A DNA stretch of 64,000 bases from Escherichia phage vB_ECOLIGBLB0003: sequence record PV654517; one strand, 5' to 3'. The translations under genes were made by a program, and so were the position numbers. Positions within the stretch are counted from its first letter, which is position 1. Each line of letters begins with the position of its first letter. Shown here in pieces: positions 8,724 to 10,023 of the stretch. The notes under the pieces were generated by a model, which made no database searches, was not told the DNA's origin, and saw only the letters and a program-made list of their open reading frames with translations.

Positions 8724-9562
8724 TAGAATGCTCCTTGGAAAATATTATTAGCACCAGTAGGTCTATTATACAAATACTCTATGCCACCGGGTTTAATATA
8801 GTTCCATGTCTGAAACGGATGCGTCTGATATGGATGATATAGATGATTATAAGGATTAAATCCAGGAGTTCTCCAGGTAGTGTTCCAACGAAAAGAATCG
8901 TTTTTAATCATCTTCTCAATTACATCTTTTATAGCTTTTTCACTATCAAAACTTTCTTTATTTTCCTTCAATGGAAAAAGCTTATTCTCTACATCATTCC
9001 ATGTATAAACACGCTGTGCAGTTTTTGGAATACTGTCACGCTCCCCTCGAGCCATCCAATAAACAGGCACATTTAATATTTCACTCGCATGATCGCAGTG
9101 GTGAGCGAGATCGTCAATATAACAAATTACGTTATATTTCTCTTTTGCCTTTTTGAACAACTCTTCTTTTGAAGAATCATGACCACACATCAGTACTTCT
9201 GAGAAGGCACCAGGAAAAAGAGCATTCAAATTAAATTGACGATTCAGCAGAGCATCAATAGAATCACCCAATGCTGTAACAGCTACAAAATTATAATCTT
9301 CTTTTAATTTGTTAATTACACATAGAGCATCTTTATACGGAGACAAGTAACGAATAAAATCTGAACGATTGTATTTTTCAATTAACTTGACGCCAAGTTC
9401 TTCATCACAATTAAAAAGTTTACCTGGAGAAATAAATTTCTCATCCTGGATCATTTTTAAAATATGTTCTAACGGAAGATTATATTTCTGAGCAAAATAA
9501 GGAAGGCCTGATTGCCAGCTTAAACATACTCCATCAATATCAGTTAAAATAGTAGGCTTCAT
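8723..9562 (-). CDS. HAD-superfamily-like hydrolase (279 aa, 30.2 position)
   Basis: N-terminal LTDIDGV matches HAD motif I (DxDG[TV]); later YIDD acidic motif; aromatic-rich C-terminal tail. Confidence 0.5.
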   Translation of the reverse strand: MKPTILTDIDGVCLSWQSGLPYFAQKYNLPLEHILKMIQDEKFISPGKLFNCDEELGVKLIEKYNRSDFIRYLSPYKDALCVINKLKEDYNFVAVTALGDSIDALLNRQFNLNALFPGAFSEVLMCGHDSSKEELFKKAKEKYNVICYIDDLAHHCDHASEILNVPVYWMARGERDSIPKTAQRVYTWNDVENKLFPLKENKESFDSEKAIKDVIEKMIKNDSFRWNTTWRTPGFNPYNHLYHPYQTHPFQTWNYIKPGGIEYLYNRPTGANNIFQGAF

Positions 9563-10023
9563 AGAGAGTCTCTTAATAGGTTTAACACATCAATAAATTC
9601 AGCTTCGGTTAGTATTGTATCATCTTTTGTTAGACCACTAGCCATGCTGTGCTTCAAAACTTTTCCTTTCGAGGCTTGTAATGCATCACGAAAGCCCTTG
9701 TTTTGGATCGCTGCTTCAAAATATGCATTTGTGTATAATTCTTTCCACGCCGGGGAGTATCTTGAAAACGGAACTCCAAGCCAGAAGAGGGTCCCATGGT
9801 CCTGAGCTCTAGCATAAGACCTTCCAGCTTGTTGAGCGGCAAGCCCGGATAACCCAAATATACGACGTTGTTGTTCAACGTTTTTCACCTTGCATCCTTG
9901 GAGGAATCCTTCAAGACCTCCAAATTGAATACCATCCATAACGAAAGGCCAATGGGCGAAATTACTTAATGCACATGATGGCCACCTAAAATTACTTCTA
10001 ATCTCTAACTCAGACATTTTCAA
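9559..10023 (-). CDS. NADAR/YbiA-like domain protein (154 aa, 30.3 position)
   Basis: Segment ALSNFAHWPFVMDGIQFGGLEGFLQGCKV parallels the E. coli YbiA core DFSNFAAWPIKVDGKTWPTSEHYFQAQKF (SNF..WP...DG...E...K). Confidence 0.5.
   Translation of the reverse strand: MKMSELEIRSNFRWPSCALSNFAHWPFVMDGIQFGGLEGFLQGCKVKNVEQQRRIFGLSGLAAQQAGRSYARAQDHGTLFWLGVPFSRYSPAWKELYTNAYFEAAIQNKGFRDALQASKGKVLKHSMASGLTKDDTILTEAEFIDVLNLLRDSL

Follow-up and report, generated by a model that had tools for sequence, protein, structure and literature searches.

The locus analysed here raises the question of what a small phage protein resembling the core of E. coli YbiA does in a genome segment that also encodes several ADP-ribosyltransferases. 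The segment, a stretch of 64,000 nucleotides of Escherichia phage vB_ECOLIGBLB0003 (PV654517), is referred to as the window. An earlier note based on the letters alone had read the protein as a NADAR-family enzyme serving either in counter-defence or in the regulation of the phage's own ADP-ribosylation. According to our analysis, the gene is very probably the adfN (30.3) allele of a T2/T4/T6-like Tequatrovirus and encodes a minimal single-domain NADAR enzyme which reverses the guanine ADP-ribosylation carried out by DarT1. The 154-aa ORF that had been described at 9559-10023 is real and contains ALSNFAHWPFVMDGIQFGGLEGFLQGCKV exactly as quoted. The gene and the features next to it or inside it are the following.

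9559..10017, minus strand: gene 30.3 (adfN), assigned as a 152-aa phage-clade NADAR ADP-ribosylglycohydrolase; stop codon TGA at 9559-9561
10021-10023, minus strand: alternative in-frame TTG, two codons 5' of the ATG at 10015-10017
10010..10216, minus strand: gene 30.4, 68 aa, immediately upstream of 30.3; product 93% identical to T4 gp30.4
9654..9878, minus strand: 30.3', a +1-frame ORF of 74 codons within 30.3; Pfam DUF2883, E=1.9e-50

The length of 154 aa is obtained if the ORF 9559..10023 (minus strand) is counted from TTG as in the ORF list. The true start of 30.3 is most likely the ATG at 10015-10017, which gives a protein of 152 aa, because both the T4 gene 30.3 annotation (459 bp, 152 aa) and the published numbering of residues E36 and K43 point to it. 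Checking of the codons showed that these residue numbers agree with the ATG 10017 start only. The TTG at 10023 was ruled out as the start by the same T4 annotation and residue numbering.

On sequence grounds the 30.3 ORF is far beyond chance, since it matches the Pfam family PF08010 (Phage_30_3) over 138/138 profile positions with E=1.7e-69 and its homologues were found in 1510 phage records covering many host genera. Its product is identical to T4 gp30.3 in 149/152 residues (98%), with the differences Q22H, R74H and I125M, and 99.3% identical to the T6 protein. The M125 which differs from T4 is found in RB69 and many relatives as well. The gene order 30-30.1-30.2-30.3-30.4 is the same in T4 and in the window. 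The neighbours of 30.3 lie on the same strand head to tail and their stop and start codons overlap: 30.4 and 30.3 by 8 nt (ATGTCTGA), so that the last 8 nt of 30.4 cover the 30.3 ATG, 30.3 and 30.2 as ATGA (the ATG of 30.2 and the stop of 30.3), and 30.2/30.1 and 30.1/30 both as TAATG. A promoter and terminator scan of the region 6700..12600 yielded no signal above the shuffled expectation. The T4 annotation lists the frame 30.3' as a product of internal translation. It is open (76 codons) in almost all 30.3 alleles of at least 84% identity, shorter (50-66 codons) in some relatives of 40-47% and absent from others.

Judged by its nucleotide sequence, the window is that of a T2/T4/T6-like Tequatrovirus. 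The 1.9-kb region around 30.3 matches 654 phage records and shows 97-98% identity to numerous Tequatrovirus genomes, for example those of Shigella phage SHFML-26 and Yersinia phage PYps55T. Elsewhere in the window, the ORF 54259..56079 (minus strand, 606 aa) has GyrB, HATPase, Toprim and TOPRIM_C domains and is an unsplit topoisomerase II large subunit. In T4, this subunit is split into genes 39 and 60, and the window phage is therefore T2/T6-like in this respect.

The assignment of gp30.3 to the NADAR superfamily had been proposed from the resemblance of its motif to the YbiA core, and 11 of 29 residues are indeed common to ALSNFAHWPFVMDGIQFGGLEGFLQGCKV and FSNFAAWPIKVDGKTWPTSEHYFQAQKF. A match to Pfam NADAR (PF08719), which the earlier note had set as the test of this assignment, was not obtained: hmmscan with gp30.3 itself gave no match to PF08719 at E<=1. 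As a refutation of NADAR membership this criterion is too strict and misleading, because in Pfam a separate model, PF08010, covers the phage clade, and because gp30.3 is tied to NADAR by the comparison of profiles and structures. The search of NCBIfam gave nothing, single-sequence phmmer against the PDB gave only noise (E>=0.7) and PHROGs gave only families of 'unknown function'. NADAR membership therefore rests on the profile and structure comparisons.

For these comparisons, a family set of 69 full-length gp30.3 homologues with 35-86% identity was used. PF08719 was matched by 26 of the 69 relatives (best E=1.5e-7). The family HMM found E. coli YbiA (PDB 2b3w) with E=0.0045 over the stretch of ALSNFAHWPFVMDGIQFGGLEGFLQGCKV, and hhalign of the gp30.3 family against the single YbiA sequence gave a probability of 93.7% and E=1.9e-7 over 90 columns. 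The AlphaFold2 (AF2) model of gp30.3 built with the 69-sequence alignment had a mean pLDDT of 93.8 and a pTM of 0.89, and the predicted structure has the alpha-helical core with small beta-sheets on its flanks that is characteristic of the YbiA fold. When this model was compared with the PDB by Foldseek, the sole meaningful matches were the three solved NADAR structures (probabilities 0.99-1.00), i.e. YbiA 2b3w (E=1.2e-4, TM 0.69), the Phytophthora NADAR with ADP-ribose 8bau and the DarG1-type protein of Geobacter lovleyi 8bat; all the remaining matches had a probability of <=0.02. The structure prediction that had been suggested as a check thus bore out the NADAR fold. By profile homology, predicted fold and catalytic residues, gp30.3 belongs to the NADAR superfamily; these three lines confirm the original assignment independently, and the T4 orthologue has been published as a NADAR protein.

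The residues that carry the assignment to the phage clade, and the C-terminal helix, lie at these positions.

9910..9912, minus strand: codon of E36, the catalytic Glu of the EGF(L)Q motif; invariant in 70 homologues; aligned to YbiA E48
9889..9891, minus strand: codon of K43, the ADP-ribose phosphate-binding Lys; at least 90% conserved; aligned to YbiA K55
9649..9651, minus strand: codon of H123, which marks the phage (gp30.3) NADAR clade; invariant; opposite YbiA E125 in the hhalign register
9565..9606, minus strand: C-terminal alpha-helix, residues 138-151, in the AF2 model; intact in the window

The positions invariant across the 70 homologues include A16-L-S-N-F20, E36-G-F38, Q40 and H123, and the E-x-x-x-Q-x-x-K core with the catalytic Glu and the phosphate-binding Lys is present as E36 and K43. 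Structures and mutagenesis of other NADARs have shown that this Lys coordinates the phosphates of ADP-ribose and that the Glu and an acidic residue of the last strand contact the distal ribose. K95 of the E. coli C7 NADAR, the equivalent of K43, is essential. The last-strand residue is Glu in the YbiA family, Asp in DarG1 and other DarT1-associated NADARs and His in the phage clade; gp30.3 has both the PF08010 match and the His in the last strand. We infer that H123 takes the role of the last-strand acidic residue of other NADARs.

The fold and the E and K residues are common to gp30.3 and E. coli YbiA, which is annotated as an N-glycosidase, and these similarities would be in line with a YbiA-like housekeeping N-glycosidase that clears reactive intermediates of the riboflavin pathway during infection. 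Such a function is nevertheless extremely improbable for gp30.3, which has His123 where the YbiA family has its signature Glu (Glu125 in YbiA). In the published phylogeny, the closest relatives of the phage clade are the DarG1 antitoxins and not YbiA (PMC11825919), and the T4 enzyme acts on DNA carrying ADP-ribosylated guanine (G-ADPr), with a defence phenotype (PMC11825919, PMC11125620). YbiA, the founding member of the NADAR/DUF1768 group, shows only about 20% identity overall to gp30.3, has a housekeeping role in riboflavin metabolism and does not protect against DarT1 in vivo (PMC11825919, PMC11125620).

The function of the T4-type orthologue of gp30.3 as an anti-DarT enzyme is already known from studies published in 2023-2025, and phage NADARs were listed in the classification of de Souza and Aravind, as cited by later papers. 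Purified T4 gp30.3 was found to strip ADP-ribose from guanosine but not from thymidine in DNA (PMC11125620, Toxins 2024). The resistance of T2 and T4 to DarTG1 was mapped to gene 30.3, which was renamed adfN, and AdfN was shown to be necessary and sufficient for T-even counter-defence against DarTG1 and to remove ADP-ribose from DarT1-modified DNA (Johannesman et al., Nat Commun 2025; PMC11825919). Later work confirmed that the T4 enzyme hydrolyses G-ADPr, while hydrolysis of cytidine-ADPr was assigned to other NADAR families (PMC12945103, 2026). In the Methods (section 4.2) of PMC11125620, the construct 'T4 phage NADAR (gp30.3)' is given as residues 1-208, which does not agree with the 152 aa encoded by gene 30.3 of T4 and of the window.

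E36A, K43A and the RB69-type truncation each impair T4 AdfN (PMC11825919), and the C-terminal helix is needed for its full activity (PMC11825919). RB69 is the one T-even phage sensitive to DarTG1, its AdfN being inactivated by the truncation (PMC11825919). According to the DNA alignment of the window, T4 and RB69, a T insertion at nucleotide 411 (after 410) is limited to RB69 and shortens its protein to 137 aa versus 152 aa in the window; T4 and the window are free of it. The window gene is thus orthologous to T4 30.3, encodes the full-length helix and lacks the RB69-type frameshift. In the RB69 locus (L084, 8206..8681), the frameshift places the end of 30.3 about 42 nt upstream of the first codon of 30.2, and the ATGA overlap is lost.

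These data suggest the following course of events. After infection of a DarTG1-carrying host, DarT1 would ADP-ribosylate the guanine N2 in phage DNA and replication would be blocked. AdfN would bind the ADP-ribose via K43 and neighbouring residues and, by means of E36 and H123, hydrolyse the N-glycosidic bond that joins C1'' of the ribose to the base. The ADP-ribose would be released and replication could proceed on DNA that is unmodified again. AdfN would act in this way as an 'orphan antitoxin', a functional equivalent of DarG1. The counter-defence reading suggested in the earlier note is well supported by the 98%-identical T4 orthologue, which lies in the same gene order and has been shown to protect T-even phages from DarTG1 (PMC11825919, PMC11125620). 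The guanine-ADPr activity was demonstrated for the T4 protein, from which the window allele differs in Q22H, R74H and I125M, whereas length, gene neighbourhood, E36/K43/H123 and the intact C-terminal helix are alike. By analogy, the window allele would be expected to behave like T4 AdfN.

Comparison with other NADARs active on DarT1-modified DNA shows how the T4-type enzyme differs from them. The DarG1 proteins of E. coli C7 and Geobacter lovleyi (PDB 8bat) are extended at the N-terminus and have Asp at the position of H123 of the phage enzyme. DarG1 is encoded beside DarT1 and neutralises it in uninfected cells, whereas T4 AdfN does not. [quoted passage not shown] T4 gp30.3 failed to rescue E. 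coli from DarT1 (PMC11125620): DarT1 is not neutralised by T4 AdfN in uninfected E. coli and phages other than T-even are rescued only partly (PMC11825919, PMC11125620). T4 AdfN is fully effective in T-even infections only, and a phage cofactor was postulated; partial rescue was still seen with the E36A and K43A mutants (PMC11825919). Partial rescue by the mutants and full activity limited to T-even infections indicate that the simple picture of a free-standing hydrolase is incomplete.

The activity of AdfN may also extend beyond DarT1. As a broader eraser of base-linked ADP-ribose, the enzyme could target other guanine ADP-ribosylating defences or G-ADPr RNA, which would extend the counter-defence explanation. 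We regard this as possible, although tentative. Removal of G-ADPr from both RNA and DNA is reported for representatives of every NADAR family, the T4 enzyme among them (PMC12945103), the enzyme acts on the modification irrespective of the toxin that wrote it (PMC11825919), and the gene is present in about 1500 phage records from many host genera. On the other hand, no further defence system has been reported as countered by AdfN, which is without effect on DarTG2, the thymine-modifying system (PMC11825919, PMC11125620).

The other function that had been proposed for the protein concerns the ADP-ribosyltransferases of the phage itself. Four of these had been counted in the window, and four are present: two Alt paralogues, ModA and ModB, the last being cut by the window end.

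4663..6759, minus strand: Alt, 72% to T4 Alt; Pfam ADPrib_exo_Tox match
2602..4659, minus strand: second full-length Alt paralogue, 41% to T4 Alt; Pfam ADPrib_exo_Tox match
62990..63592: ModA, 99% to T4 ModA
63589..64000, minus strand: ModB, running off the window end; residues 72-207 present, 96% to T4 ModB

The two full-length Alt-type genes 2602..4659 and 4663..6759 are arranged in tandem (ADPrib_exo_Tox with E=5e-20 and 2e-37, respectively). At its N-terminus, the downstream copy shows 95-98% identity to T4 Alt.-1 and Alt.-2, and T4 alt.-1 and alt.-2 therefore look like remnants of the second paralogue, which is intact here. ModB appears in the mechanical ORF list as a 117-aa GTG ORF.

With four such genes in the same 64-kb window, two of them within 3-7 kb of 30.3, gp30.3 might erase or tune the arginine-ADPr which Alt and its paralogue, ModA and ModB place on host proteins such as RNA polymerase. 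The NADAR name itself was first given for the genomic association with NAD/ADP-ribose systems, as the literature records. We consider this function very unlikely. The NADAR activities described in the surveyed literature concern ADP-ribose linked to bases (guanine and, with some enzymes, cytidine) or riboflavin intermediates, and activity on protein-linked ADP-ribose is absent from the NADAR reports surveyed there, which disfavours such a role, although that literature contains no test on Arg-ADPr. The gene is already explained by the DarTG1 phenotype seen on deletion of adfN (PMC11825919), and most distant gp30.3-type loci are without any conserved neighbour. The suggestion that gp30.3 regulates the phage's own ADP-ribosylation has thus gained no support.

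The counter-defence function of gp30.3 leaves the postulated phage cofactor to be considered, and the gene directly downstream deserves attention in this respect.

8723..9562, minus strand: gene 30.2, 279 aa; HAD-superfamily hydrolase over residues ~1-200, with a tail (229-279) modelled at low confidence

A HAD motif had been noticed in this ORF, whose product is 96% identical to its T4 counterpart and starts with MKPTILTDIDGV. The observation holds: the four HAD motifs (D8/D10, T96, K132 and D150-D151) are invariant in 56 gp30.2 homologues, and the predicted structure matches HAD folds. In the AF2 model, confidence is high for residues 1 to ~200 and low for 229-279. Foldseek with this model found 109 HAD structures at E<=1e-3, the first of them being the mouse 5'(3')-deoxyribonucleotidase 2jao (E=2.5e-8), which was also the best match of the gp30.2 family profile in the PDB, at a marginal E=0.059. 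The motifs and the fold thus support the HAD assignment, whereas the Pfam and NCBIfam searches with gp30.2 returned no matching model. With DxD, S/T, K and DD placed on a Rossmann-like core with a cap, gp30.2 is, as judged from the model, a genuine HAD-fold hydrolase closest to the 5'(3')-deoxyribonucleotidases. The enzymes cdN and mdN (2jao, 2i7d, 1mh9) share with it the HAD Rossmann core, the helical cap and the DxD/T/K/DD residues, but only about 16% identity, and gp30.2 has an extra C-terminal tail of about 60-80 residues predicted with low confidence. This tail (residues ~223-279; 8723..8893, minus strand) has a pLDDT <50 and is rich in N, T, P, Y, F and W. Its motif G-[TG]-G-I-E-Y-L-x-x-Q/R-P-T recurs in many otherwise divergent homologues, and the tail is absent from the short ones (~200 aa). 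The literature search for a function of gp30.2 gave nothing relevant.

A functional tie between the two genes could take one of two forms: gp30.2 could be the postulated T-even factor for full activity of T4-type AdfN, or 30.3-30.2-30 could constitute a small module for DNA detoxification and repair. The overlap ATGA between 30.3 and 30.2, and hence presumed translational coupling, speaks for such a tie. Both genes have nearly the same distribution across Straboviridae genera (1510 versus 1439 phage records; 77/77 for Aeromonas and 69/69 for Acinetobacter hosts), and the HAD gene and DNA ligase were the only recurrent neighbours found by clustering (+/-2.5 kb) in distant gp30.3-type loci. RB69, in which ectopic AdfN works fully, keeps an intact 30.2. 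Taken as a whole, we nevertheless find this tie quite unlikely. A gp30.2 homologue was found within 6 kb of the gp30.3 relative in 22 of 80 viral-contig loci and none in the other 58. The 30.2 gene lies directly downstream of 30.3 in loci of at least 84% identity and in one locus of 47% identity; in five further loci the homologue is 0.7-1.2 kb downstream and in the last one it is upstream, with a weak match. Adjacency is confined to Tevenvirinae and a few other T4-like genomes, and in the genome of Aeromonas phage AS-zj the pair is separated by about 70 kb (positions 75.7 kb and 5.2 kb). The neighbour clustering within +/-2.5 kb revealed no partner conserved across distant gp30.3 loci, most of which had no conserved neighbour. 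The co-occurrence of 30.2 and 30.3 at the genome level is inseparable from shared ancestry, and it therefore does not establish functional linkage; inherited T4-like synteny would also account for the pattern. The published cofactor data could be explained just as well by any of many other T-even-specific genes.

With adjacency in 22/80 loci and no conserved partner in distant loci, a conserved functional linkage of 30.2 and 30.3 is consequently not established. The genes 30.3 (NADAR), 30.2 (HAD) and 30 (ligase) are found together in the window (6994..10017, minus strand) and in six of the compared loci (L016, L017, L018, L046, L047 and L054). This NADAR-HAD-ligase grouping, seen in the few distant T4-like genomes in which any of the neighbourhood is preserved, may reflect either synteny alone or an association in DNA repair.

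The coupled HAD neighbour gp30.2 may be named, at the low probability given above, as a candidate for explaining why full activity of T4-type AdfN is limited to T-even infections. A firm functional annotation of 30.3 can replace the label 'hypothetical protein' of the matching database records, and the start codon of the gene is corrected. The window phage would be predicted, by analogy with T4, to resist DarTG1. With its counter-defence function, adfN represents a clean case of an 'orphan antitoxin' of a lytic phage which chemically undoes a DNA-ADP-ribosylating defence, a case already made experimentally for T4.
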